A stretch of DNA of 64,000 nt from an uncultured Armatimonadetes bacterium (GCA_963716175.1 OY970296.1:1600001-1664000), one strand, 5' to 3'; numbered from the stretch's first letter, positions 25,865 through 37,646 are shown. Notes: a model not told the origin generated them from the sequence alone. Translations and numbers: made by a program.

Positions 25865-26971
25865 TTGACCGAGACGAGCTGGCCGGGACTCCATGGAAGC
25901 TGGATAACGCCGGAATCGGCGCTCCATGACTGGCGGGACCGGATCGCACGCGTGGAGGCCCAGGAGACGGCGCATTTCGCGAACCTGCCGTACGTGACGG
26001 GCGTGGCGGTCATCGGATCGGTGGGCCGCGGGACGCAGTGGCCGCTCTCGGACCTCGACCTGCTGGTGGTGGCTGACTTCTGGGAGGGCGAGGACCCAGA
26101 GTGGCTGATCCGACGCGAGGAAGAAGAGCGCATCAGGCGGCTGCACGCGGCCGGGATCCCGAACGACGTGGAGGCCGGCAACTGGGTGCTTACCACGGAT
26201 GAGGTCCGTGCCGCCATGGATGGGGACGATGACACGTTCCTGAAGACGCTCGACCATGGGCACTGGTTGGGGATCGCGATCAAGGCTGAGGGGGCGCGGG
26301 TGGCACTGGATTTCGATGGCTACGTGACTCGGTTCATCAGCAGATGCAATCGCATGCTGTGGACTGATCGCTTTGTGAAGCTGTGGCTGCGGCGGGCCGG
26401 GGAGGACGCGGAGGAGCGGGTCGAGGGGGCTCGAAGCCGCCTGCGAAACGGCGATGCCGCGGCGGCTTCGCTCGAGCTGATCCTCGCCGCCCAGGTGATG
26501 ACAGGGCCCATGTACGCGCTGTGGCGAAAGCTGCCGGAGAGCATCAGCAGAGGGGTGACGCGATTCCTCGCGGCGGCAGCAGAGATGCGCGAGCAGGAGG
26601 TCTCCTCACACTTCCTGTCAGCAGCGAGGTTGAGCGAGGATGAGGTGGGCGAACGGTTCGCAGCGACTCCACCGGCGGGACAGCGGGAGCGTGATGTGTG
26701 CCTCGCTATCCGTCGTGGGAATGGCGAGAGCCTGGACGCGTTAGGGGCCACCCGCGACCTGCTTCACATAAGCCTGTGGGTCGCCGTGATGCTCGACCGC
26801 AGTCTCTGCGCTCCGTATGCCCTGTGGACGGGCGTGACCGCGGACGAGCAGATCGTCCGCCGGCAGTTGGATGCTGCACAGGCGATGCTCGCGCGGCTGC
26901 AGAGGCCCAGGGCCGACCTGGAGGCAGCTGAGGGAGCTACTGAGCGGTCGCGCGGGACTGCGTCGGAATGA
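25865..26971 (+). CDS. Nucleotidyltransferase domain protein (KNTase-like)
   Basis: GSVGRG.....SDLDLLVV motif, helical C-terminus; GAGGAG before TTG. Confidence 0.65.
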   Translation: MTETSWPGLHGSWITPESALHDWRDRIARVEAQETAHFANLPYVTGVAVIGSVGRGTQWPLSDLDLLVVADFWEGEDPEWLIRREEEERIRRLHAAGIPNDVEAGNWVLTTDEVRAAMDGDDDTFLKTLDHGHWLGIAIKAEGARVALDFDGYVTRFISRCNRMLWTDRFVKLWLRRAGEDAEERVEGARSRLRNGDAAAASLELILAAQVMTGPMYALWRKLPESISRGVTRFLAAAAEMREQEVSSHFLSAARLSEDEVGERFAATPPAGQRERDVCLAIRRGNGESLDALGATRDLLHISLWVAVMLDRSLCAPYALWTGVTADEQIVRRQLDAAQAMLARLQRPRADLEAAEGATERSRGTASE

Positions 26972-27235
26972 CCTCGCGAAGATGGGCGATGTCAGCGCCG
27001 ATAGAGGCGTGTCTGAAGAGACCGATCACGGGATCTGGCCGTCGCCAACACTTGCAGGGGGTATTGGCTGTCCGTCCTATGGAGACACTAAGGACGGGCT
27101 CGCCATAGCTGTCGCGGAATCCTCGCCAGAGCCAGCGCGCGATCTCTCGAGGCAGAGCAGGCGACAGCCCGATGGGTGTCGAACGCGCACAGCGGCGAGC
27201 GCGCCATGGTCTGCGGCGGCTCGCCGGAGAGAGGG

Positions 27236-27961
27236 ATGCCAATCCTTTACATCATCGCAACTCCCATCGGCAACCTGGAGGACATAAGCTACCGCGCGGT
27301 GCGGGTGCTCGGAGAGCTTGAGGCGCTGGCCTGCGAGGACACGCGGCGCACGCGCATACTGCTGGATCGCTATCACATTCCCAGGCCGAAGAGGCTCTTC
27401 TCCTACCACGAGCACAATGAGAAGGAGGCCGCGGCGCGCATTCTCGGGCTGCTTGAGAAGGGCACGGCGCTAGGACTAGTGACGAAGGCGGGTTACCCTG
27501 GGGTGAGCGATCCCGGCTATCGGGTGATCTCGCAGGCGGTGGAGCGGGGGTTCCGGGTGGAGGTGCTTCCGGGCGCGGGAGCGGTGGAGGCGGCGCTGGT
27601 GCTGTCGGGCCTGCCCGGCGCCAGCTTCACGTTCAAGGGATTCCCTCCGAGAGGCGCGAGCAAGAGGCGGCGCTTTCTGGAGGCGGAGAAGGAGCTGCCG
27701 CACACTCTGATATTGTTCGAGTCTCCCCGCAGGTTCGCAGCGCTTCTGGCCGACGCGCTCGCGGTGCTGGGCGATCGGAAGGCGGCGGTGTGCATCGAGA
27801 TCACGAAGATGTTCGAGGAGGTGGCCCGGGGCTACCTCTCGGAGCTGGCCGAGAAGTTCCGGGGCACCACGATCAAGGGTGAAGTCACGGTGGTGATCGC
27901 GGGCAATAACCCGAAGTTCATGAAGCCGGAGGAGAAGGCGCGGGAGGCCGGCTCGCCATGA
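27236..27961 (+). CDS. rsmI: 16S rRNA C1402 2'-O-methyltransferase
   Basis: LYIIATPIGNLEDIS, ACEDTR, SYHEHN, SDPG, FESP. Confidence 0.93.
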   Translation: MPILYIIATPIGNLEDISYRAVRVLGELEALACEDTRRTRILLDRYHIPRPKRLFSYHEHNEKEAAARILGLLEKGTALGLVTKAGYPGVSDPGYRVISQAVERGFRVEVLPGAGAVEAALVLSGLPGASFTFKGFPPRGASKRRRFLEAEKELPHTLILFESPRRFAALLADALAVLGDRKAAVCIEITKMFEEVARGYLSELAEKFRGTTIKGEVTVVIAGNNPKFMKPEEKAREAGSP

Positions 27962-29066
27962 ATGAGCTGTGCACTGCAGATGGGAGGATTCGGCTCCCTG
28001 CATTCCTGCCGGACGCGACGAGGGGCGTTGTGCGCAGCCTCGATTCGGAGGACCTGGCCCGGGTGGGAGTCGAGGGGATCGTTGTGAACGTGCTTCATTC
28101 TCCTCCGACCCCGGTGCGTCGGTGATATCGGGCCTCGGAGGGATCGGCCGTTTCATGGGGTGGAAGGGTGTGGTGGCCTGCGATTCGGGAGGGTTTCAGG
28201 TCTACTCGCTGATCGCGCGTTCGGCCAAGATGGGAAGTGTGTCGGAGCGGGGGTTCAGCTACCGGCTTGGACAAGGGCAGAAGAAGGAGATGCTGACCCC
28301 GGAGAGGTGTATCGAGAGGCAGTTCCAGATCGCGGCCGATCTGATGTTCTGTCTCGACTACTGCACACACCCCGATGCGCCCGCAGATGTCCAGCGGGAG
28401 AGCGTGGAGTGGACGATCGCGTGGGCCAGAAGGTGTAAGGAGGAGTTCTCGCGACGGCTGGAGGGCGTGGCGTCGAGGGGACACAGGCCCATGCTCTTCG
28501 CGGTTGTCCAGGGAGGGGCGGACCGGGATCTTCGCAGGCGATGCGCGGAGGAGCTGCTGGAGATCGGCTTCGACGGGTATGGCTACGGGGGGTGGCCGGT
28601 GGATTCGAAGGGGTCGCTGGTGGAGATGGTGGAGTACGTCAGGGAACTAGTGCCGCGGGAGTTCCTGCTTCACGGGCTGGGGATTGGAAAGCCCGAAAGT
28701 GTGGTGCGCTGCGCCAAGATAGGCTATCAGCTTTTCGACTGCGTGCTGCCGACGCGGGATGCGCGGCACGGCAGGCTTTACGTCTCGACCGACGGCTTTG
28801 CAGACCTCACCGCGGAAGATGGATCCTGCTACGAGTACTTGTACATCCGGGATGACAGATACCGGAGGGACGAACGTACGCTGGAGGAGGGCTGTGACTG
28901 TCCAGCATGCGGCAGCCATTCACGCTCTTACCTGCGGCATCTCTTCGAGATTGGGGACGCGGCGGGGTGGAGGCTGGCCACACTTCACAACCTGCGGTTC
29001 TACGCGCGGCTGATGGAAAAGCTGCAGTCACAGCGGGACCGCGGGGGAGGGCCGCAGAGCGGGTGA
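27958..29066 (+). CDS. tgt: tRNA-guanine transglycosylase (single-base frameshift near 28099, probably sequence error)
   Basis: ATG 27958 frame gives LPAFLPDATRGVV..VVNVLH; second frame gives DSGGFQ, VVQGG, FDCVLPTR, CDCPAC..HNL. Confidence 0.85.
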
Positions 29067-29070
29067 AGAG

Positions 29071-29877
29071 ATGACCGAGGATGAACTCGGCGAGATCGTC
29101 TCGGCCCTCAGGCGGTCGCGGAAGTACCGCTTTGTGTGTGAGGACACTCTTCGGCGGATTGCGCGCTGGGCCGCCGCGCGGCATGGGAAGAGGAAGGACA
29201 TCGTCAAGGCGGCGAAGCGGAAGCTCCACCAGGCCTATGGCGCGTACCTCGAGGGGTTCGATCCGGCCGAGGTTGAGGCATTAGTGGAGGCTCTCCCCTC
29301 AGATCCCCCGGAGGGAATGCTGCGGGAGACCTGTCTGAAGATACTGGAGCAGCACGCCTCGGCCAAGGAGCGCATACCATTTATGGAGGAGGCCTTTGCC
29401 GAGGTCTTTCGGAGAACGGGCCGGCCGGAGGTCATCCTCGACCTTGCCTGTGGGCTGAATCCGTTCGCCTTTCCGTGGATGGGGCTGTCGAGGGAGACGG
29501 AGTATCACGCGTACGACATGGAGAGCCGACTTGTGTCGGCGGTGGACGCATTCCTGCTGCGGGTCGGCGTCGAACACAGTGCGGTCTGCTGCGATCTCCT
29601 GGTGTCGGTGCCGGAGGCGGAGGCGGATGTCGCTTTTCTGCTGAAGACGATGCCTTGTCTGGAGCGGCAGGAGAAAGGCGCGAGCAGCCGGATCCTGCGC
29701 GGGGTGAAGGCCCGCAATGTCGTTATCTCATTCCCCGCTCAGTCGCTGGGCGGGAGGGACAAGGGAATGCACGAGCACTACGGGGAGGAGGTGCTGCGGC
29801 TTGGTGCAGACCTCGGCCTCGCTGCAGAGGAGGTCGCCTTCCCGAACGAGACCTTCTACCTGCTGACGAAGGCTTGA
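29071..29877 (+). CDS. Arm/Rmt (FmrO/Sgm) family 16S rRNA m7G1405 methyltransferase-like protein
   Basis: K.KLHQ..GAY, HAS.KER, LDLACGLNP, LLKT.PCLERQ, SFP.QSLGGR.KGM..HY. Confidence 0.85.
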   Translation: MTEDELGEIVSALRRSRKYRFVCEDTLRRIARWAAARHGKRKDIVKAAKRKLHQAYGAYLEGFDPAEVEALVEALPSDPPEGMLRETCLKILEQHASAKERIPFMEEAFAEVFRRTGRPEVILDLACGLNPFAFPWMGLSRETEYHAYDMESRLVSAVDAFLLRVGVEHSAVCCDLLVSVPEAEADVAFLLKTMPCLERQEKGASSRILRGVKARNVVISFPAQSLGGRDKGMHEHYGEEVLRLGADLGLAAEEVAFPNETFYLLTKA

Positions 29878-30163
29878 GCAGCGCTCGCTCTGCGAATCAG
29901 CGCAGCTCCCGCGGGCTCCAGGTCGCGCTCCTGGAGCCGGATTTCGACCTTCTGAGCATCTTGCTGGCCGCGGATGACGGCAGGACCGCAGGGGTGGCCG
30001 CGGCGGTGGGACTGAGGCGGGCGGTCCGGGGTGCCCGTGAGACGCGAGACGGTTCGATTCCCACGCGGACCAGGAAGACGCTCTGGCATCGAAATCCCCG
30101 ACTTCGTCCGAAGGCCCGTCGTTTCGATGCCAGGATGTTGTCCTCCGCCAAGTGCGTGGCGAT

Positions 30164-30217
30164 AGGTCTGGTGCATGCGAGGGGGGAGGGAAACCATCCC
30201 CCCTCGGTTCTTCCCCC
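30164..30217. repeat. G/C-run hairpin repeat (copies also at 44872-44920 and 52781-52834)
   Basis: AGGTCTGGTGCAT.CGA(A)GGGGGAGG-loop-CC.CCCCC.TCG.TTCTTCCCCC. Confidence 0.65.
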
Positions 30218-30291
30218 ACCTTGTGGGAGGAGAACGATAGGCTTGGCGCCGTTCGCGGGGCAGGGTCATGCTCCTGCCCGGCCTGCGGGAG

Positions 30292-31788
30292 CTATCTGTG
30301 CGCCAACACCCGCATCACTTCGTCAATGGTGGTGAGGCCGTCTTTGGCCTTGCGCAGGCCATCCTGAAGCATGGTGACCATGCCGGACTCGATGGCGGCC
30401 TGGCGCAGCTCGCCGGTGGGGGCGCGGCGGATGGTCATCTCCTTAAGGCGGTCGTCCATCTCCAACAGCTCGAAGAGCGAGATGCGCGCCCGATAGCCGG
30501 TGCCGCGGCAGTCGGCGCACCCCCGCCCGCGGTAGAAGGCCGCGCCGGTGAGGTCCAGGCCAGAGAGCGACTGGACGTGCTCGGCCAGCCCTGTCCCAGG
30601 CTGGAAGGGCGCTTTGCACTTCTGGCAGAGGCGGCGCGCCAGGCGCTGCGCGAGCACCGCGGTGAGCGCGGTGCCGACGAGGAAGGGCTCGGCGCCCATA
30701 TCGAGTAGGCGGGTGATGGTGCTGGGAGCGTCGTGCGGAAGCATCGTGGTCAGGACCAGGTGGCCAGTCAGGGCGGCCTGGATGGAGGTTTCGGCAGTGG
30801 CCAGGTCCTCGATCGCCCCGACCAGTATGATGTCGGGGTCGGCGCGCTGGAAGTAGCGCATGGCGGCGGCGTAGGTTAACCCCATCTTCCGGTTGACGTG
30901 CATCTGGGAGACACCGCGCATGCGGTAGATCACGGGATCCTCAATCGTGACCAGCTTCCTGGTGGGCGAGTTGAGGATGTTGAGCGCCGAGTAGAGGGTG
31001 GTCGTCTTGCCTGATCCCGCAGGCCCCACGACGACGATCAGCCCGTTCGGGTCGCGCAGCCTGCGCTCGAAGCGCTCCTGGATCTCCGGGTAGAAACCAA
31101 GCTTCTCCATGCCGATGAGCACACTGCTCTGGTCGTAGATGCGTACCACCGCGCTCTCCCCATAGAGGGCGGGGAAGGTGAGGGTCCGCAGGTCATACTC
31201 GCGACCCTCGTACTCATAGATGATGCGGCCGTCCTGGGGGATGCGGCGCTCGCCGACCTCGGCGTCGGCCATGATCTTCAGGCGCGCGACCAGGGGACGA
31301 TGCGCCTCTTTAGGGAGGGATAGTGCCTCGCTAAGCACGCCGTCAACGCGGTAGCGGATCACAACCTGGTCGCGGCTGGTGTCGAGGTGGATGTCGCTGG
31401 CGCGGGCTGCGATCGCTTCCCTGAAGATGGTGTTCCAGGTGGCAGCGACCGCGCTCTGTGGGCCTGCCTCCTCGGTGCTGACTTGGTCCCAGTCAATCGG
31501 AGGGAGGTGGCGCTCCTGGCGGGCCTTGTTGACGGCCTTCGCCAACCCGGCGGGCTCGTGCAGCTCGGCCGGCTCTTCGGCCTGGAGGAACTGCTCCAGG
31601 TCCCGGCGGTAGAACCTCCACTGGGTGCCGGCCTTGAAGCCCTTGATCTTCTCCTGCGCGAGCCAGCGGTAGAAGGTGGGCTTGCTCACTTTCAGGAAGG
31701 CCGCCGCGGCTGTCAAGTCCAGCACCTCGTCCGGCGGGGGTGCCTGGGGCTGCTCCTTCGTCGTCTTCGCCTGCTTTGCTCTACGCAT
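30292..31788 (-). CDS. GspE/PilB-family ATPase with N-terminal excisionase-type HTH and degenerate catalytic motifs
   Basis: AAAFLKVSKPTFYRW..GTQWRF HTH_17; ASDIH, PQDGR, GPAGSGKTT, CQKC/CADC; altered EDPVIY, VGAIED, TTMLPH. Confidence 0.9.
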   Translation of the reverse strand: MRRAKQAKTTKEQPQAPPPDEVLDLTAAAAFLKVSKPTFYRWLAQEKIKGFKAGTQWRFYRRDLEQFLQAEEPAELHEPAGLAKAVNKARQERHLPPIDWDQVSTEEAGPQSAVAATWNTIFREAIAARASDIHLDTSRDQVVIRYRVDGVLSEALSLPKEAHRPLVARLKIMADAEVGERRIPQDGRIIYEYEGREYDLRTLTFPALYGESAVVRIYDQSSVLIGMEKLGFYPEIQERFERRLRDPNGLIVVVGPAGSGKTTTLYSALNILNSPTRKLVTIEDPVIYRMRGVSQMHVNRKMGLTYAAAMRYFQRADPDIILVGAIEDLATAETSIQAALTGHLVLTTMLPHDAPSTITRLLDMGAEPFLVGTALTAVLAQRLARRLCQKCKAPFQPGTGLAEHVQSLSGLDLTGAAFYRGRGCADCRGTGYRARISLFELLEMDDRLKEMTIRRAPTGELRQAAIESGMVTMLQDGLRKAKDGLTTIDEVMRVLAHR

Positions 31789-31800
31789 TTCGATGCTCCT

Positions 31801-32490
31801 TCAGGCTTGTCTCTTGCCGGGCAGGTCGCGGACCTGCCCTACGCGGGCTGGGCGCGCCTTCGCGGCTTCATCCAGCAGGTAGTCCGCTACGATGGAAAGG
31901 GTTTCGGCCAGCCTTCCGGTTTGCTCACCATCGCGGATCATCTCAATGGTCATCGGCGGCAGGTCGGCGGCCACCGGGGCGAGCGCTTCGCTGAGATCGG
32001 CACCCCCGCGCACGGCCTCGCGGGCGGCGAGCAAGGCCCCGCGCGGCTCCGGCACCACGATGGACTCGGCGGCCGCCTCCAGAGCCTGGAGGATCGGCAC
32101 TCCCACCTGGAGCATTAGTCCGAGACGGCCCACGGCAAGGGAGTATTCGCGAAGCAGACGGTTGTGAGACGCCGGCAGGGATCGCTCCGCCTCCAGGCGA
32201 TCAGCGAGCTTAGTCAGCGCAGGCCCGGGCGCGCCGTGCAGCTCACCGCTGAGGATGGTTCCCCAGACGAACGCTGGGACGCGGGAGATCAGCCCTCTCG
32301 CAACCGTGGCCTCCGATACCAGGTTGTCTCGCATCGCGCGCAGGAGGGCTCGTGGCCCCGCGGGGGCGCGTGGAGAGATGCTGTCCAAGGCCTGCAAGAT
32401 GGTGGTGTCGCCCTGCAGGGCGGCCGCCAGGCGGCGGCAAACCCAGACTACGTCCTTTGCGGCCTGCGCGGAAAGCTGGTTCTGGCCCAT
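31801..32490 (-). CDS. GspF/PilC-like protein with two cytoplasmic T2SSF domains and no transmembrane helices
   Basis: ILQAL..GELHG..L..LAD and GVPILQAL..V.GG..LS.AL..MI..GEQTG.L...L..VADY repeats joined by a short polar linker. Confidence 0.75.
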   Translation of the reverse strand: MGQNQLSAQAAKDVVWVCRRLAAALQGDTTILQALDSISPRAPAGPRALLRAMRDNLVSEATVARGLISRVPAFVWGTILSGELHGAPGPALTKLADRLEAERSLPASHNRLLREYSLAVGRLGLMLQVGVPILQALEAAAESIVVPEPRGALLAAREAVRGGADLSEALAPVAADLPPMTIEMIRDGEQTGRLAETLSIVADYLLDEAAKARPARVGQVRDLPGKRQA

Positions 32491-32510
32491 GCCAAGGCCC
32501 CCTTTCCAAT

Positions 32511-32565
32511 GGCTATCACTGGTTATCATCAGTCATCATATACCATATTTGATAGGACATGTCAA
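32511..32565 (-). promoter_or_regulatory. Promoter of gspF/gspE-like operon with 10-bp-phased direct repeats
   Basis: Minus-strand TTGACA at 32565-32560, AT-rich -10 region near 32535-32542; GGCTATCACT/GGTTATCATC/AGTCATCATA at 32511-32540. Confidence 0.55.
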
Positions 32566-32630
32566 GGGGCTCCTGCATATTCCTCGCACCGTAGTGGCCG
32601 GAGCAGATGGTAGGACGGTGAGGTGGAGCC

Positions 32631-33542
32631 GTGACGCCTGAGATTCCAGTATTGCCGCAGATGCGGGCCCTCGGACTGGAGGACCGAGCGATCCTGCATC
32701 CACTCTTGGGGGAGCTGCGGCCCCAGCAGTCCGAGTTCACGTTCACCAATCTGTTCATCTGGCGTGACGCGCATCAGCTCCGGCTCTCCCGCGTGGGCGA
32801 GGCGGTGCTGATCTTCTCGTGGCGGGCCGACCCGGAGGACTCGTTCCTGTTCCCTCCCTTGGGCGCGGGTGCGGATAGGACCGTGGTGCGCGCGGCGCTG
32901 GAGCACATGGCGGCGGAGGGGCACAATCCCCGGCTGGCGCGGGCCACCGTGGAGGACCTGACGCGGTTGGAGGTGACGGAAGACGAGTTTGCGATCCAGT
33001 CCGATCGCGCGCAGTGGGACTACGTCTACCCGGTGCAGGACCTGATCGAGCTGCGCGGGAATCGCTATCATGGGAAGCGGAACCACCTGGAGCAGTTCAC
33101 CCAACGCTATCAGTTCAGCTATCATGGGCTGGCGGCGGAGCTGGCGCCGGCCTGTCAGGAGCTGCAGGATCGCTGGTGCGATGAGAAGCACTGCGACCTG
33201 GTGGCGACCCTGCACAGTGAGAGCCGGGCGGTGAAGGAGGCGCTGGAGGAGTTCGAGACGCTGGGGATCACCGGGGGCTGCATCGTGGTGGAGGGGAAAG
33301 TGGAGGCGTTCGCGCTGGGCGAACTCCTGAACCCCGAGACGGTGGTGATCCACATCGAGAAGGCGAACGCGGCCTTCCACGGTCTCTATCAAGCTGTCAA
33401 CCAGCAGTTCCTGGAGCAGGCATGGAGGCGAGTTCCTTACGTGAATCGAGAGCAGGATCTAGGCCTTGCGGGCCTACGCAAGGCGAAGGAATCGTACCAC
33501 CCACATCACATGGTCGAGAAATTCGAAGTGCGCCTGAAGTGA
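32631..33542 (+). CDS. DUF2156 (phosphatidylglycerol lysyltransferase-like) protein
   Basis: SEFTFTNLFIW, DYVY...L..L.G..YH.KRNH, HIEKA, YVNREQDLG..GLRKAK.SY.P. Confidence 0.9.
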   Translation: MTPEIPVLPQMRALGLEDRAILHPLLGELRPQQSEFTFTNLFIWRDAHQLRLSRVGEAVLIFSWRADPEDSFLFPPLGAGADRTVVRAALEHMAAEGHNPRLARATVEDLTRLEVTEDEFAIQSDRAQWDYVYPVQDLIELRGNRYHGKRNHLEQFTQRYQFSYHGLAAELAPACQELQDRWCDEKHCDLVATLHSESRAVKEALEEFETLGITGGCIVVEGKVEAFALGELLNPETVVIHIEKANAAFHGLYQAVNQQFLEQAWRRVPYVNREQDLGLAGLRKAKESYHPHHMVEKFEVRLK

Positions 33543-34399
33543 GAGCGCGTCTCCGCCAGCTCTTCGTCTCTGGACTCTGCCTGCTGGCGACGGCCGGCGC
33601 GGCGCGCGCGGCGCCCCGGATCGAGCTGGCCCCGGAAGGACCGCGGCCCGGGGAGGTGATACTGATCACACTGCGGCCCGAGCAGGCGCTGCTGCGCGCT
33701 TCCTGCTCGTGGCGCGGGCGCGCGTATGCTTTCCTCCCTGTCGAAGACGGCTACGGGCTGGTGCTCCCGGTGGCGGCGAGCGCGCGACCTGGCGGCTATC
33801 ATGCCACCATCTACTGGAAATACGAGGACGGCCAGGGCGGAGCGGTAAGCCTGCCGGTGGAGGTGGCACCGAGACGGTTTGGAGTGCAGCGGCTGCGGCT
33901 ATCGGCGAGCCAGGAGCGGCGGTATTCGGCGCCAGAGACGGCGCGGGAGTACCAGCTGATTGGGGCGGCGCTGGACCGGGTGGGCCCGCAGCGGCTGTGG
34001 CGGGGGGATTTCACGATGCCGCTGCATGGGCGTGTGAGCACGGAATTCGGGCTTCAGCGGTACGTCAACGGGCGCTTCGACTACCGCCACCGGGGGCTCG
34101 ACATCGCGGCGCCGCAGGGCACGCCGGTGCTGGCGCCAGCGGCGGGGGTGGTGGCGCTGGCCGACGCCTCCTTCCTGCTGCACGGGCAGACGGTGATCCT
34201 GGACCACGGGCAGGGCACGGCCTCACTCTACCTGCACCTGTCTCAGATCGAGGTCACGCCGGGCGAAGCGGTGGAGCAGGGCCAGGTGATCGGTCGCGTG
34301 GGGGCCACCGGGATTGCGACCGGGCCGCATCTGCATTACGCTGTCTACGTCTACCACGAGGCGGTGGATCCGCGGTGCTGGCTGCACCTTCCCCGCTGA
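33539..34399 (+). CDS. M23 family metallopeptidase
   Basis: Signal peptide, HRGLDIAA, DHG.G..SLYLHL, TGPHLH. Confidence 0.9.
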   Translation: MRARLRQLFVSGLCLLATAGAARAAPRIELAPEGPRPGEVILITLRPEQALLRASCSWRGRAYAFLPVEDGYGLVLPVAASARPGGYHATIYWKYEDGQGGAVSLPVEVAPRRFGVQRLRLSASQERRYSAPETAREYQLIGAALDRVGPQRLWRGDFTMPLHGRVSTEFGLQRYVNGRFDYRHRGLDIAAPQGTPVLAPAAGVVALADASFLLHGQTVILDHGQGTASLYLHLSQIEVTPGEAVEQGQVIGRVGATGIATGPHLHYAVYVYHEAVDPRCWLHLPR

Positions 34400-34474
34400 A
34401 GATGGAGTGAGGAAAGCGGCGTTCCCTCGGTGTTACTCTGGCGCGCGCTGCTGCGAGCAGGGAGATCAGATAGC

Positions 34475-34507
34475 GATCGGGCGAGGGAGCATCTCCCTCG
34501 CCCGATC
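34475..34507. terminator. 14-bp GC hairpin between convergent genes
   Basis: GATCGGGCGAGGGA-GCATC-TCCCTCGCCCGATC, 11 nt after the microprotein stop; no strong U tract. Confidence 0.45.
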
Positions 34508-34518
34508 TCTTTCGCCGA

Positions 34519-34584
34519 CTACTTCTTCTTTTTCTTCGCCGATTTCTTTGCGACCTTCTTTGCGGCCTTCTTCTTGGCTGGCAA
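34519..34584 (-). CDS. 21-aa Lys/Ala-rich histone-H1-like microprotein
   Basis: AAGGGGGG RBS, TTG start, MPAKKKAAKKVAKKSAKKKKK*, followed by a hairpin. Confidence 0.65.
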   Translation of the reverse strand: MPAKKKAAKKVAKKSAKKKKK

Positions 34585-34847
34585 CTCTGTTGCCCCCCTT
34601 CTTGCGTACCGCGTATGCGATGAGGACCGCATCACCTGTGCCCGGGCTCAGGCCCCTTTGGCGCGGCACGTTGATAGATGGCCTAACCGCCTCTTTGGCC
34701 ACTCGCGCGCGTCCGCGCGATGAGTCTGATCGCATATGCCACACTTTGGTCACTTTCTCGCACTCACCTCGCGAAAAAGTTTTGCACTGAGGTCGCGTGG
34801 GAGACGAGAGCGCGACACGAGAGGTGATGTCATGTGAGGACGCGGCA

Positions 34848-34951
34848 CTACTGAGCTTCGCCCAAAGAAATAACGGAGCGAAGCTCAGGCAACTGGTCAG
34901 ACGGGCCCGGAGCGGCGTTCGCACATTACTTCTCTGTGCGAACGCCATTAG
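34848..34951. repeat. 104-bp twin-hairpin MITE/REPIN-like element, copy 2
   Basis: CTACTGAGCTTCGC..GCGAAGCTCAG and GGCGTTCGCACA..TGTGCGAACGCCATTAG. Confidence 0.75.
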
Positions 34952-35021
34952 TGCACGATGACGCGGTCATCGGCAATCAGGTGCGCGCGGGGGCCGCATC
35001 GGGATCGACGATGGAGTCGGA

Positions 35022-35306
35022 CTACTCGCGCACGGCGAGAATGGAGTCTTCATCCAGCAGCACCAGGTCCTCGCCGCCTACCGTCACTTCGGTCCCCGCG
35101 TACTTCGAGTAGATTACAGTATCGCCGACCTTGATATGGAGCGGGATACGCTTGCCATTCTCCAAGCGCTTGCCGCTGCCGACAGCCAGCACCCTTCCCT
35201 CCTGGGGTTTCTTGCGAGCGGTATCCGGGAGCACGATGCCGCCCCGGGTGCGCTCCTCTGCTTCGTGCGGGCGCACCAGCACACGATCAGCTAGCGGCTT
35301 CAGCAT
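35022..35306 (-). CDS. groES: Co-chaperonin GroES
   Basis: LKPLADRVLV, TRGGIVLPD, AVG.GK, KVGD.V.YSKYAGTEV. Confidence 0.97.
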   Translation of the reverse strand: MLKPLADRVLVRPHEAEERTRGGIVLPDTARKKPQEGRVLAVGSGKRLENGKRIPLHIKVGDTVIYSKYAGTEVTVGGEDLVLLDEDSILAVRE

Positions 35307-35473
35307 GAGCCTGTACCTCCTTGACGGTGTCTGACAACGCTGTGTTCAGGGCTCTATGAAAGCGGCCTACGAGCCGTGCCAACCCGGGTATCCGGTTCTG
35401 ATGCGGCTTCGGCGCAGACTCGCCCCGAAGCCCGCCACCGCCCTTCCTGGGCAAGAGCACGGACACGGGCGGT

Positions 35474-35502
35474 ATTGTATTTTCCGCCTGTGGGGTTGTC
35501 AA
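35474..35502 (-). promoter_or_regulatory. sigma70 promoter of groES
   Basis: Minus strand TTGACA-17bp-TACAAT. Confidence 0.65.
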
Positions 35503-35601
35503 GCCAGCAGGGGCAGGAGCAAGCTCCTGCCCAACGAACCCTACTTCGCCAAGGCTTCGTAGGGCAGGCTGCTTCTGGCCTGCTCACGCAGCCGGAGAGC
35601 C

Positions 35602-37053
35602 ATGGCCTTCGAGGGACTGCAAGACTACGCGGCGGCGCTGGAGAGGCGCGGCGAGCTGCGCACGATTGGGGCCTCGGTTGACCCGGAGCTCGAGATCACT
35701 GAGATCGCGGACCGGGTGCTGCGCGCGGGCGGACCCGCGCTGCGGTTCACCGCGCCCAAGGGATCGCGCTATCCGGTGCTGATCAACCTGTTCGGCACGG
35801 CCGCGCGGACGGCCTTCGCGCTGGGAGTCTCGAATGTGAACGAGATCGGGGCGCGACTGGAGGGCCTGCTGCGGACCCAGCCGCCGAGCTCGCTGCTGGA
35901 TAAGCTGCGGGCGATACCCAGGCTGGTGGAGATGAGCTCATGGGCGCCGCGCCAGGTGGGGACCGCGCCTTGCCAGGAAGTGGCGGAGGAGAATGCCTCG
36001 CTGTTGGACCTGCCGGCCCTGAAGTGCTGGCCGGGGGATGGCGGGCGGTTCCTCACGCTCCCCATGGTGATCACGCGCCATCCCGAAAGCGGGCAGCGCA
36101 ATGTGGGCATGTACCGGATGCAGATCTTCGACGAGCGCACCACGGGCATGCACTGGCACCCCCACAAGGTGGGGGCGGCGCACTACCGAGCCTATCAGGC
36201 GCGGGGGGAGCGAATGCCGGTGGCAGTGGCCCTGGGCAGCGACCCGGCGGTGATCTATGCCGCCACCGCGCCGCTGCCGGAGGAGTTCGACGAGATGCTC
36301 TTCGCCGGGTTCCTGCGGCGGAAGTCGGTGGAGATGGCGCGGTGCCGGAGTTGCGAGCTGGAGGTGCCGGCCGACGCCGAGTTCGTGCTGGAGGGATATG
36401 TCGAGCCCGGCGAGTTGAGAACAGAGGGACCGTTCGGGGACCATACCGGCTACTACTCACTGCCCGCCGAGTTCCCGGTGTTCCACTTGACGGCACTGAC
36501 GCGGCGGGCGCGCCCGGTCTATCCGGCCACCATCGTGGGGCCTCCGCCCAAGGAGGACTGCTTCCTGGGGAAGGCCACGGAACGGATTTTCCTGCCCTTG
36601 CTGCGAATGCAGGTTCCCGAGATCGTTGACATCAACCTGCCGATCGAAGGGATCTTCCACAACCTGGCGCTGGTGCGCATCGCCAAGCGCTATCCGGGGC
36701 AGGCCTTCAAGGTGATGCACGCGCTCTGGGGAATGGGCCAGATGATGCTGACCAAGATCATCGTGGTGGTGGATGAGGAGGTGGATGTGCAGAACCTGCC
36801 CCAGGTGATATGGCGGGTGGGGAACAACATAGACCCGGAGCGCGATGTCTGCTTCGTGCCAGGGCCGGTGGATATCCTCGACCACGCGGCCCGGCTGCCG
36901 GGCTTCGGCTCCAAGATGGGCGTTGACGCCACGCGCAAGCTGCCCGGGGAAGGCTTCTCTCGCCCCTGGCCGGAGGTGATCGAGATGAGCGCAGAGGTGC
37001 GGGCCCGGGTGGACGGGGTGATGGGGACGCTGGGACTGGAGGAAAGAGAATGA
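35602..37053 (+). CDS. ubiD: UbiD-family decarboxylase (menaquinone biosynthesis)
   Basis: VDPELEITEI, NVGMYRMQ, EGPFGDHTGYY, GPPPKED, SKMGVDAT. Confidence 0.92.
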   Translation: MAFEGLQDYAAALERRGELRTIGASVDPELEITEIADRVLRAGGPALRFTAPKGSRYPVLINLFGTAARTAFALGVSNVNEIGARLEGLLRTQPPSSLLDKLRAIPRLVEMSSWAPRQVGTAPCQEVAEENASLLDLPALKCWPGDGGRFLTLPMVITRHPESGQRNVGMYRMQIFDERTTGMHWHPHKVGAAHYRAYQARGERMPVAVALGSDPAVIYAATAPLPEEFDEMLFAGFLRRKSVEMARCRSCELEVPADAEFVLEGYVEPGELRTEGPFGDHTGYYSLPAEFPVFHLTALTRRARPVYPATIVGPPPKEDCFLGKATERIFLPLLRMQVPEIVDINLPIEGIFHNLALVRIAKRYPGQAFKVMHALWGMGQMMLTKIIVVVDEEVDVQNLPQVIWRVGNNIDPERDVCFVPGPVDILDHAARLPGFGSKMGVDATRKLPGEGFSRPWPEVIEMSAEVRARVDGVMGTLGLEERE

Positions 37054-37646
37054 CGGAAGTAAAGGAGCTGTTCATCGCCATCACGGGAGCGAGTGGGGCG
37101 ATCTATGCCGATCGTCTGCTGCGCAGAGCGGCGGACCTGGTGGGCCGGCTGGATGTGGTGCTGAGCACGCACGGCGCGGAGGTGGCAGCTCACGAGTTGG
37201 GGTGGGCGGTGGACTTCGACACCCTCCACGTCACCGGGCCGCCGCCGGAGGTGCTGAAGCGGGCGCAGTTCTATCGGCCGGATGACCTCTCGGCGCGCTA
37301 CGCCAGCGGCTCGGCCGCGCCCGACGCCATGATCGTCATCCCCTGCTCGATGAACGTGGCGGGACGGATCGCCTCAGGCCTGGGAGATACCCTGATCACC
37401 CGCGCGGCGGCGGTGTGCCTGAAGGAGCGCCGGCCCCTGGTGCTGGTGGTGCGGGAGGCGCCTCTCAATCTGCTTGACTTGCGGAACTTCGTGGCCCTCA
37501 CGGAGGCGGGGGCGACGATCATGCCGGCGGCGCCGCCTTTCTACTCGAGCCCCAAGAGCATCGAGGAGCTGGCCGATTACTTCGCGGCGCGGGTGCTGGA
37601 CCAGGTGGGCCTGCGGGTGCGGCATCCGGGCCGCTGGGGAGGTTGA
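37050..37646 (+). CDS. ubiX: UbiX flavin prenyltransferase
   Basis: AITGASGAIYA, ASGS, PCSM, RAA.V.LKERR, REAP, P.FY. Confidence 0.93.
   Translation: MTEVKELFIAITGASGAIYADRLLRRAADLVGRLDVVLSTHGAEVAAHELGWAVDFDTLHVTGPPPEVLKRAQFYRPDDLSARYASGSAAPDAMIVIPCSMNVAGRIASGLGDTLITRAAAVCLKERRPLVLVVREAPLNLLDLRNFVALTEAGATIMPAAPPFYSSPKSIEELADYFAARVLDQVGLRVRHPGRWGG

Follow-up and report, generated by a model that had tools for sequence, protein, structure and literature searches.

The window analysed here is a 64,000-nucleotide stretch (positions 1,600,001-1,664,000) of the single-contig, 4.56-Mb genome of an uncultured Armatimonadetes bacterium (GCA_963716175.1, OY970296.1; genome G000; G+C content approximately 66%), and those database relatives of its proteins that bear names belong to Armatimonadota without exception. 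It contains two adjacent genes, placed on the minus strand inside mostly plus-strand surroundings, whose predicted products resemble PilB and PilC of type IV pilus machines: (i) gene A (30292..31788), encoding a 498-aa protein with an HTH_17 and a T2SSE domain, and (ii) gene B (31801..32490), located directly upstream and encoding a 229-aa protein with two T2SSF domains. The position and the domain architecture of the pair (Pfam) agree with an earlier note on this DNA (the original prediction), which had described a PilB fused to a helix-turn-helix (HTH) in place of the N1/MshEN domain and altered in its catalytic motifs, together with a PilC devoid of transmembrane (TM) helices. All features of the pair given below lie on the minus strand.

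The two genes are considered to form one operon, because the gap between them is only 12 nt (31789..31800) and an AAGGAG ribosome-binding site (31794-31799) is contained wholly within it. The start of gene B was placed at the ATG at 32490, which is preceded by the ribosome-binding site GGAAAGGGGG (32498..32507) and matches the recorded protein P0123. An alternative start, the ATG at 32529 (242 aa), was rejected; it coincides with the predicted transcription start.

Based on its ORF and translation and on the results obtained with Pfam, NCBIfam, AlphaFold2 and Foldseek, the gene A product was classified as a putative PilB/GspE-like pseudo-ATPase. Its T2SSE core (N2D and CTD; residues 113-493; 30310..31452) matches PF00437 with an E value of 3.9e-106 and, among PDB sequences, PilB, PilF and GspE with E values of 1e-92 to 1e-103. 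The AlphaFold2 model (mean pLDDT 87.5) superposes on PilB/PilF with a Foldseek TM(target) of up to 0.94 at 42% identity. Pfam gave no match to the GSPII/MshEN (N1) domain, which the canonical relatives possess (PF05157); instead, this part of gene A is occupied by a predicted winged HTH of the HTH_17/excisionase family (residues 23-70; 31579..31722), recognised by PF12728 (E 3.5e-12; 46.8 bits, cut-off 27), by TIGR01764 (39.7 bits, cut-off 28.8) and in the model. In the latter, residues 22-69 form a strand-helix-helix-hairpin-helix arrangement (block pLDDT 77-88), as read from the model itself and not by comparison with a solved member, and are preceded by a disordered basic tail (residues 1-19). 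A search of the ESM Atlas with residues 1-112 gave no usable match.

In the PilB of G. metallireducens, Mg is coordinated by E357 of the Asp box, E395 serves as the catalytic Glu, the gamma-phosphate is contacted by H420 of the His box, and R271 and R286 are the arginine fingers; across the superfamily, the catalytic residues of PilB/GspE ATPases are conserved completely or to a high degree (McCallum et al. 2017, PMC5424180). We aligned gene A to a solved Geobacter PilB and counted the equivalent positions by hand. The Walker A motif GPAGSGKTT (residues 255-263; 31000..31026), including its Lys, and the tetracysteine zinc motif CxxC...CxxC (C388, C391, C424 and C427; 30508..30627) are conserved, and the arginine fingers correspond to R201 and R216. 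Three other motifs are altered: (i) in the Asp box IEDPVIY (residues 282-288; 30925..30945), EDPVEF has become EDPVIY, with I287 at the position of the Mg-coordinating E357, (ii) in the Walker B motif ILVGAIED (residues 321-328; 30805..30828), GEIRD has become GAIED, with A325 replacing the catalytic E395 and Glu replacing the next Arg, and (iii) in the His box GHLVLTTMLPHDA (residues 342-354; 30727..30765), STLHTNDAP has become TTMLPHDAP, with the first His present and H420 replaced by L350. The changes in the hydrolysis motifs that the original prediction had listed, beside an intact Walker A motif and zinc site, were each seen in this alignment.

The product of gene B matches the T2SSF profile (Pfam) with an E value of 2.8e-23 in two stretches. 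The first (32176..32439; profile positions 2-94 of 125) is collinear with the N-terminal cytoplasmic domain of PilC, and the second (31852..32127; positions 4-96 of 125) with the C-terminal one. Among the other T2SSF matches in G000, 14 of 15 extend to profile position 118-125, the remaining one being a weak sub-cut-off fragment (positions 10-75). The peak Kyte-Doolittle 19-residue mean of gene B is 1.48, compared with 2.56-3.39 in 21 canonical PilC proteins, where the peaks occur at the expected three places. The absence of TM helices claimed earlier is borne out by these values, which come from a hydropathy scan, and by profile matches that stop before the TM part. The AlphaFold2 model of gene B (pLDDT 93.4) contains 12 helices, and each of its halves superposes on the solved cytoplasmic domains of EpsF, OutF, PilC and TcpE (Foldseek TM(target) 0.74-0.83). 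Since the matches to canonical PilC are collinear and the profile matches end early, gene B corresponds to a PilC lacking the N-terminal approximately 55 residues and the three membrane helices.

This shortened form is not peculiar to the window. The gene B family comprises 58 clusters of 163-255 aa, after which the score falls from 141 to 68 bits, to PilC proteins of 400 aa. A profile search of 1.84 billion representatives returned 17 matches with E ≤ 1e-30; their lengths are 99-235 aa, and apart from 13 nearly complete sequences they are fragments. By sequence length and score, gene B thus belongs to a discrete short family. Two more distant short proteins, P0238 (219 aa) and P0280 (224 aa), also have two T2SSF domains and no strong hydrophobic segment, and from these it may be that soluble PilC-like proteins exist in other lineages. 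When P0238 was compared with the genome contigs, five loci were found, four of which span approximately 880-890 nt for about 200 query residues and are probably ordinary full-length PilC.

The C-terminal tail of gene B varies. In contigs from three of four environmental runs one base is missing at 31845, with which the partner would stop 13 residues sooner (...KARPAA). In the window itself (31730-31905), another frame reads a tail ...KEHRNA followed by a stop, which is like the usual C-terminus of the family and overlaps the start codon of gene A. Either indels among strains or an assembly error accounts for this tail.

We also examined the distribution of both genes. Among G000 and 40 of its relatives, a full-length gene B is present in 10 genomes and a full-length HTH-type gene A in exactly the same 10; each of them has gene B immediately ahead of gene A on the same strand, with both frames intact. 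In two of these genomes (G001 and G014) the partner seemed to contain internal stops, but these lay at the match ends and were the normal termination codons of the genes. At the level of the phylum, a sample of 401 genomes contained gene B in 10, namely in 9 of the 15 of family f1, including G000, and in 1 of the 2 of family f5. A metagenome scan yielded 51 gene B loci, some of which duplicate each other or the genome loci: gene A is adjacent or overlapping in all 44 that have at least 200 nt downstream, and the remaining seven end too early, one of them showing the beginning of gene A. Genes A and B are an obligate pair, encountered in a single class-level group of Armatimonadota known mostly from uncultured members in wetland and sediment metagenomes. 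Two metagenome loci have an aberrant partner between the promoter region described below and gene A: in one (L098:1888-2282) only the second T2SSF domain is left, and in the other (L097:1016-1624) there is a mid-gene frameshift.

The catalytic changes were then placed among the relatives of gene A. A search of 5.8 billion clusters gave a set of 83 core clusters combining HTH_17 and T2SSE (53-73% identity), followed in the hit list by canonical MshEN-type PilB proteins of the same phylum, with approximately 50% identity over the ATPase part. With residues 1-115 as the sole query, the same family was recovered, plus one unrelated protein. The core clade is monophyletic (SH-aLRT 100) on a quick tree in which the HTH columns were included. 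At least one of the four catalytic residues is lost in 82 of its 83 clusters, all four being canonical only in P0029. The Walker A Lys is replaced by Arg in 73 clusters; the position of the catalytic Glu is occupied by E in 39, D in 36, A in 4 and G in 4; the H420-equivalent is Leu in 71 and His in 4; and the Mg-binding Glu is retained in 78, with I, L or Q in the other five, including the window protein. The substitutions given in the original prediction are therefore exact for the window protein and typical of a small subclade only, as most relatives instead exchange the Walker A Lys for Arg and keep the Asp-box Glu. On the quick tree the Lys-bearing subclade of the window protein is nested among Arg-bearing ones, so that Lys and Arg have toggled at this position.

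Other features do not vary. R201, R216, the Asp-box residue E283, the four Cys of the zinc motif and D317 (in the DPD stretch just before Walker B) are invariant in 83 of 83 clusters, and the pore-loop residue D328 is present in 81. Catalysis is thus lost differently from branch to branch while the cross-subunit nucleotide contacts stay constant, a pattern that would be expected if nucleotide binding and ring contacts were selected and hydrolysis were not. The motifs are fully canonical in all 33 MshEN-type or unfused relatives from the same hit list and in five other PilB/GspE paralogs of G000. The best-conserved region of gene A is the HTH, with a mean majority-residue frequency of 0.86 against 0.70-0.78 for the ATPase domains, and with 13 residues that are invariant even when two outlying sequences are included.

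Over six pairs of sequences, dN/dS lay between 0.15 and 0.26 in gene A and between 0.23 and 0.42 in gene B, with dS near saturation for some pairs. From these values and the motif counts, the loss of catalytic residues and of TM helices is a fixed trait of the clade under purifying selection. The earlier proposal of a coordinated loss in both genes, as opposed to random decay, is borne out by the degenerate motifs, the obligate pairing and these ratios, and across the clade we found neither homologs with canonical motifs as a rule nor a TM-bearing PilC in the place of gene B. That the pair consists of decaying, functionless paralogs can practically be dismissed: the lost catalytic motifs and TM helices, the two metagenome loci with a frameshifted or single-domain partner and the indel in the partner tail are what decay would produce, but frames are intact in 10 of 10 genomes, dN/dS is low, identity is 43-73% across the conserved 83 gene A and 58 gene B clusters, 56 loci share the gene order and the promoter, and both structural models are confident.

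The HTH fusion also occurs outside the core clade. A distant HTH-fused PilB-like gene with 46% identity (L041:270-1790, genome G022:C53) has canonical Walker A, Asp box and Walker B motifs and the His box STLMPSNP; its HTH differs, a partner gene is lacking, and upstream there are no TGATA boxes (see below). It may be an intermediate form. G000 itself encodes a second HTH_17 and T2SSE paralog (L042:11841-13355; G000:C1:3763841-3765355) with the near-canonical motifs GPSGCGKTT, VEDPVEL, GELRT and VLHASTA. A ComEC-like "Competence" gene is oriented divergently to this paralog, and a TM-bearing PilC of 392 aa is encoded approximately 5 kb away; the promoter of the paralog carries a different inverted repeat, TCACAG-N12-CTGTGA, and on the tree the paralog joins P0096 in a long-branch join. 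As this paralog is near-canonical and the distant HTH-fused forms P0093 and G022 are canonical or nearly so, the HTH fusion is older than the loss of catalysis.

Inspection of the region upstream of gene B revealed a predicted promoter overlapped by a candidate operator (32514..32565). It is comprised of (i) a TTGACA hexamer (32560-32565), (ii) an inverted box TATCA (32550-32554) within the spacer between TTGACA and the -10 element, (iii) a TG-extended -10 element (TGG and TATATG; 32537-32545) and (iv) three direct boxes, TGATG (32534-32538), TGATA (32524-32528) and TGATA (32514-32518), whose starts are exactly 10 bp apart and which cover the -10/+1 region. The promoter assignment rests on the perfect TTGACA, the extended -10 element and their conservation. 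All 10 genome loci have, upstream of gene B, TTGACA, a 17-nt spacer with TATCA, TGGTATATGAT and more TGATA boxes. A profile built from these 10 sequences matched 44 of the 46 metagenome loci that extend 110 nt or more upstream, and when the whole loci were searched the last two, which are those with the frameshifted and the single-domain partner, were also found to carry the operator; it is present at 56 of 56 loci examined (10 genome and 46 metagenome). The consensus of 49 distinct sequences is TTGACA-N4-TATCA-N5-TGGTATATGATAAC-N3-TGATAAC-N3-TGATAA, which approximates three tandem copies of ATGATAAC-NN. The strain variants in positions 32510-32529, among those listed for contigs from four environmental DNA runs, in which the locus is present, all fall outside the boxes.

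The operator is unique in the 4.56-Mb genome: with nhmmer the site itself scored E 1.8e-13 and the next match E 0.18. The phased triple box, with one mismatch allowed, occurs solely at the promoter of the pair in each of the genomes G000, G011 and G014. Exact phased TGATA pairs are found three times in G000, and the two outside the operator (G000:C1, approximately 3995986 and 4408560, minus strand) lie in near-identical stretches of about 70 bases with TGATA-N5-TGATA, which are probably copies of a repeated element. The GATAA repeats are similar to iron-regulator boxes, and a Fur box with a global regulon was considered. This idea was rejected, as clusters of at least three boxes, phased triples and the nhmmer model all returned only this promoter in G000, as did the triple-box search in G011 and G014.

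In our preferred reading, to which we give about an even chance, the pair constitutes an autorepressing, nucleotide-binding and non-hydrolysing PilB-derived oligomer with a soluble PilC-derived cofactor, and not a pilus machine. With its PilB fold, P-loop, pair of arginine fingers and zinc site retained, gene A would probably still bind nucleotide and oligomerise; with the ATP-hydrolysing residues lost, the nucleotide would serve as a structural ligand or a slow switch and not as a fuel. The winged HTH would bind the inverted TATCA and the three TGATA repeats phased at 10 bp, and since these boxes extend over parts of the promoter from the -35/-10 spacer through the -10 element to the transcript start, the bound protein would repress the operon. 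A DNA-binding role of gene A has indirect support from the conservation of the HTH and from the genome-unique repeat operator in its own promoter. Gene B may dock on gene A as PilC supposedly docks on PilB, setting the conformation and hence the DNA binding of gene A; its role would be that of a co-repressor or an anti-repressor.

Contact between the two proteins is weakly supported by complex prediction. The A-B complex scored ipSAE 0.48-0.49 in three runs, and the best of three controls scored 0.00; between runs the contact agreement was at least 37%, and the partner pLDDT was at least 81. In calibration, 58 out of 80 solved complexes reached the mark applied, as did 2 out of 110 mismatched pairs, counts that are only a rough guide here because our own alignments were used, and passing scores of 0.60 or less were obtained for just 7 of the 80 solved complexes and for both mismatches. 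The interpretation in the original prediction is supported in part. In the soluble PilB-PilC-like complex that it proposed, the partner is predicted to be soluble, and its contact with gene A is weakly suggested by this score; the coupling to pilus state would be hypothetical. The further proposal of a transcriptional switch for other genes, or of a nucleoid protein, is so far unsupported, as the sole operator found is the pair's own.

Several observations weigh against the reading of an autorepressing oligomer. DNA binding, nucleotide binding without hydrolysis, oligomer formation, A-B contact, HTH-operator contact and the direction of regulation are all inferred. At the level of the A-B score, passing predictions are false more often than true, except where the pairing is already likely. 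PDB sequence and profile searches with the HTH part of gene A gave no match. A simple promoter/terminator scan of 29700-32900 returned no sigma-70-like site; the scan missed the site described above because its -10 hexamer (TATATG, or TATGAT at 19-nt spacing) breaks the scan rule. One of the boxes (box B) overlaps the -10 element in part, and may be conserved simply because it belongs to the promoter. No second operator was found in the genome, and self-regulation alone leaves the cellular output unexplained. The Lys and both Glu residues are retained in some members (the G022 variant, P0029 and P0093), and with the toggling between Lys and Arg this leaves room for slow hydrolysis in some members of the clade. 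Finally, the near-canonical HTH_17 paralog near a TM-bearing PilC might mean that the HTH is a docking domain replacing N1.

A further reading, which we consider unlikely, is a sensor of the sequestration type. A ring of catalytically dead PilB, with up to six winged helices, would clamp the repeats of its own promoter while holding the soluble PilC mimic, and would leave the DNA upon capture by membrane PilC or pilus bases, or upon a change of nucleotide. If true, this would couple the number or the state of pilus machines to gene expression, and would represent the first transcription factor derived from a secretion or pilus ATPase and the first soluble PilC.

Among the rival explanations, a serious one, compatible with autorepression and given a small but real probability, is that the pair inhibits the pilus motor. 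The dead PilB would compete with active PilB or PilT for the pilus base, or form mixed rings with them, and the soluble PilC would plug the pores of active motors; the HTH would only hold the level of the pair constant by autorepression, the output being exerted at the protein level on pili, which overlaps in part with our own reading. G000 provides possible targets, since it keeps a full canonical pilB-pilT-pilC set, as well as five further PilB-like and many PilT-like genes, and the closest canonical relatives of gene A are the phylum's own MshEN-type PilB proteins (52-53% identity). A single operator in the genome fits pure self-regulation, the pore-loop residue D328 is retained, and small PilB-binding inhibitors, e.g. 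Aqs1, are described in a review on PilB regulation (PMC11656802). Against inhibition, the same review gives N1 as the domain that likely interfaces with the stator of the machine (PMC11656802); as N1 is missing from gene A, docking at the pilus base is not expected. Furthermore, the pair is unlinked to any pilus locus.

It is also conceivable, though distinctly unlikely in our view, that the HTH_17 domain is a protein-docking module replacing N1/MshEN, without DNA binding, and that another regulator reads the promoter boxes. Such a module is suggested by the second HTH_17 and T2SSE paralog, near-canonical and placed beside a ComEC-like gene approximately 5 kb from a TM-bearing PilC, and by the distant forms P0093 and G022, whose canonical or nearly canonical motifs make the fusion compatible with a working motor; in addition, no solved DNA-bound homolog was found by sequence. 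The domain nevertheless scores above the curated cut-offs of two DNA-binding families, is preceded by a basic N-terminal tail and is the best-conserved region of gene A. The boxes are confined to this operon in each genome tested, so that a separate regulator would need to be dedicated to it and yet be encoded elsewhere in every lineage, and upstream of the G022 variant, with its different HTH, such boxes are missing.

A working, atypical ATPase motor with a soluble platform, acting on a substrate other than a pilus, e.g. DNA, seems very unlikely. The fold, the P-loop, the arginine fingers and the zinc site are intact, the changes of Glu to Asp (36 of 83) and Lys to Arg (73 of 83) are conservative, and one member retains all four residues; on the other hand, the window protein is without three catalytic residues at once, and the subclades have lost different residues, as expected once hydrolysis is no longer selected.

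Compared with canonical PilB/GspE proteins (G. metallireducens PilB, T. thermophilus PilF), gene A shares the N2D and CTD fold, the P-loop, the arginine fingers, the first His of the His box, the pore-loop Asp and the zinc Cys residues. It differs in the replacement of the Mg-Glu, the catalytic Glu and the gamma-phosphate His (the Walker A Lys in most relatives), in the winged HTH that takes the place of GSPII/MshEN, and in its lack of linkage to pilins or a membrane platform. Gene B shares with PilC/GspF the two tandem T2SSF helical domains, which align in order with the N- and C-terminal cytoplasmic domains there, and differs in lacking the first approximately 55 residues and all three membrane helices; it has 229 aa versus about 400 and is predicted to be soluble.

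The HTH links gene A to BldC, a protein of the HTH_17 class, and to lambda Xis: the domain is of the HTH_17/excisionase family, and its candidate target consists of short direct repeats one helical turn apart. BldC, of the MerR-like/Xis type, reportedly binds direct repeats cooperatively as a multimer (PMC5859096). In contrast to these proteins, the HTH of gene A is fused to a ring-forming NTPase fold of approximately 400 residues and has no sequence match to a solved member. Another analogy is provided by the type Ia ParA proteins. These ParA proteins (P1/F) carry an N-terminal HTH, repress their own operon with a small partner as co-repressor and hydrolyse ATP. The likeness lies in the combination of an HTH-NTPase, a small partner and an operator in the own promoter; the ATPase folds are unrelated (deviant Walker A ParA/MinD versus PilT-like), and the pair has no centromere or plasmid context. 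The PilB of M. xanthus offers a precedent for control of another process by the nucleotide state of a PilB, as opposed to pilus assembly: according to the review, it signals for exopolysaccharide production (PMC11656802). Unlike gene A, it is a working motor inside a pilus machine and has no DNA-binding domain.

A literature search of full texts, supplements excepted, on HTH-fused or degenerate PilB, HTH_17 with T2SSE, pseudo-ATPases, soluble or helix-free PilC and pili of Armatimonadetes found no description of such proteins. In the part of the 2024 review of PilB regulation that was covered, a helix-turn-helix is mentioned only for a phage peptide (PMC11656802). The parts of the system belong to known families; their combination, the joint loss of catalysis and membrane anchors, and the dedicated operator are not described in the literature searched. 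PilB/GspE and PilC/GspF are regarded as obligate parts of membrane machines. A clade that discarded catalysis and anchors, gained a DNA-binding domain and was maintained by selection with its own operator would, if the reading is true, be a clear case of a motor turned regulator. A naturally soluble PilB-PilC pair, if true, could also open the long-sought PilB-PilC interface to membrane-free structural work. The reach of these conclusions is limited to a single class-level group of Armatimonadota.

The neighbours of the pair are housekeeping genes. Downstream and convergent are genes for a tRNA-guanine transglycosylase and, directly behind it, an FmrO-family rRNA methyltransferase (29071-29877, plus strand; Pfam E 1e-56), which faces gene A. 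Upstream and divergent (32631-34399, plus strand) are genes for a stand-alone LPG_synthase_C protein (303 aa) and, overlapping it, an M23 peptidase, followed by GroES and UbiD/UbiX. The LPG_synthase_C/M23 genes are syntenic with the pair in most genomes of family f1 and in approximately two thirds of the metagenome loci; they are missing in G018 and several further loci, and carry an internal deletion in G007. The intergenic region is consequently shared by the pair and these divergent genes in most loci, not all, and inspection of it by eye gave no convincing candidate for a divergent promoter of the LPG_synthase_C gene. The PADLOC defence models assigned neither gene to a system; the HTH gave a weak match to mad1 (E 1e-05), accompanied by P-loop noise, and the partner gave none.

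The absence of adjacent pilus genes noted in the original prediction was also observed here: none of the ten ORFs tested (25865-37646) matched a pilus family, the secretin and PilMNO families not being searched separately, and the 71 prepilin N_methyl matches of the genome all lie outside the window. For a genome of 4.56 Mb, G000 is unusually rich in type IV filament parts: besides these 71 matches it has seven full-length PilB/GspE-like genes and many PilT-like ones, and T2SSF domains are matched 17 times.

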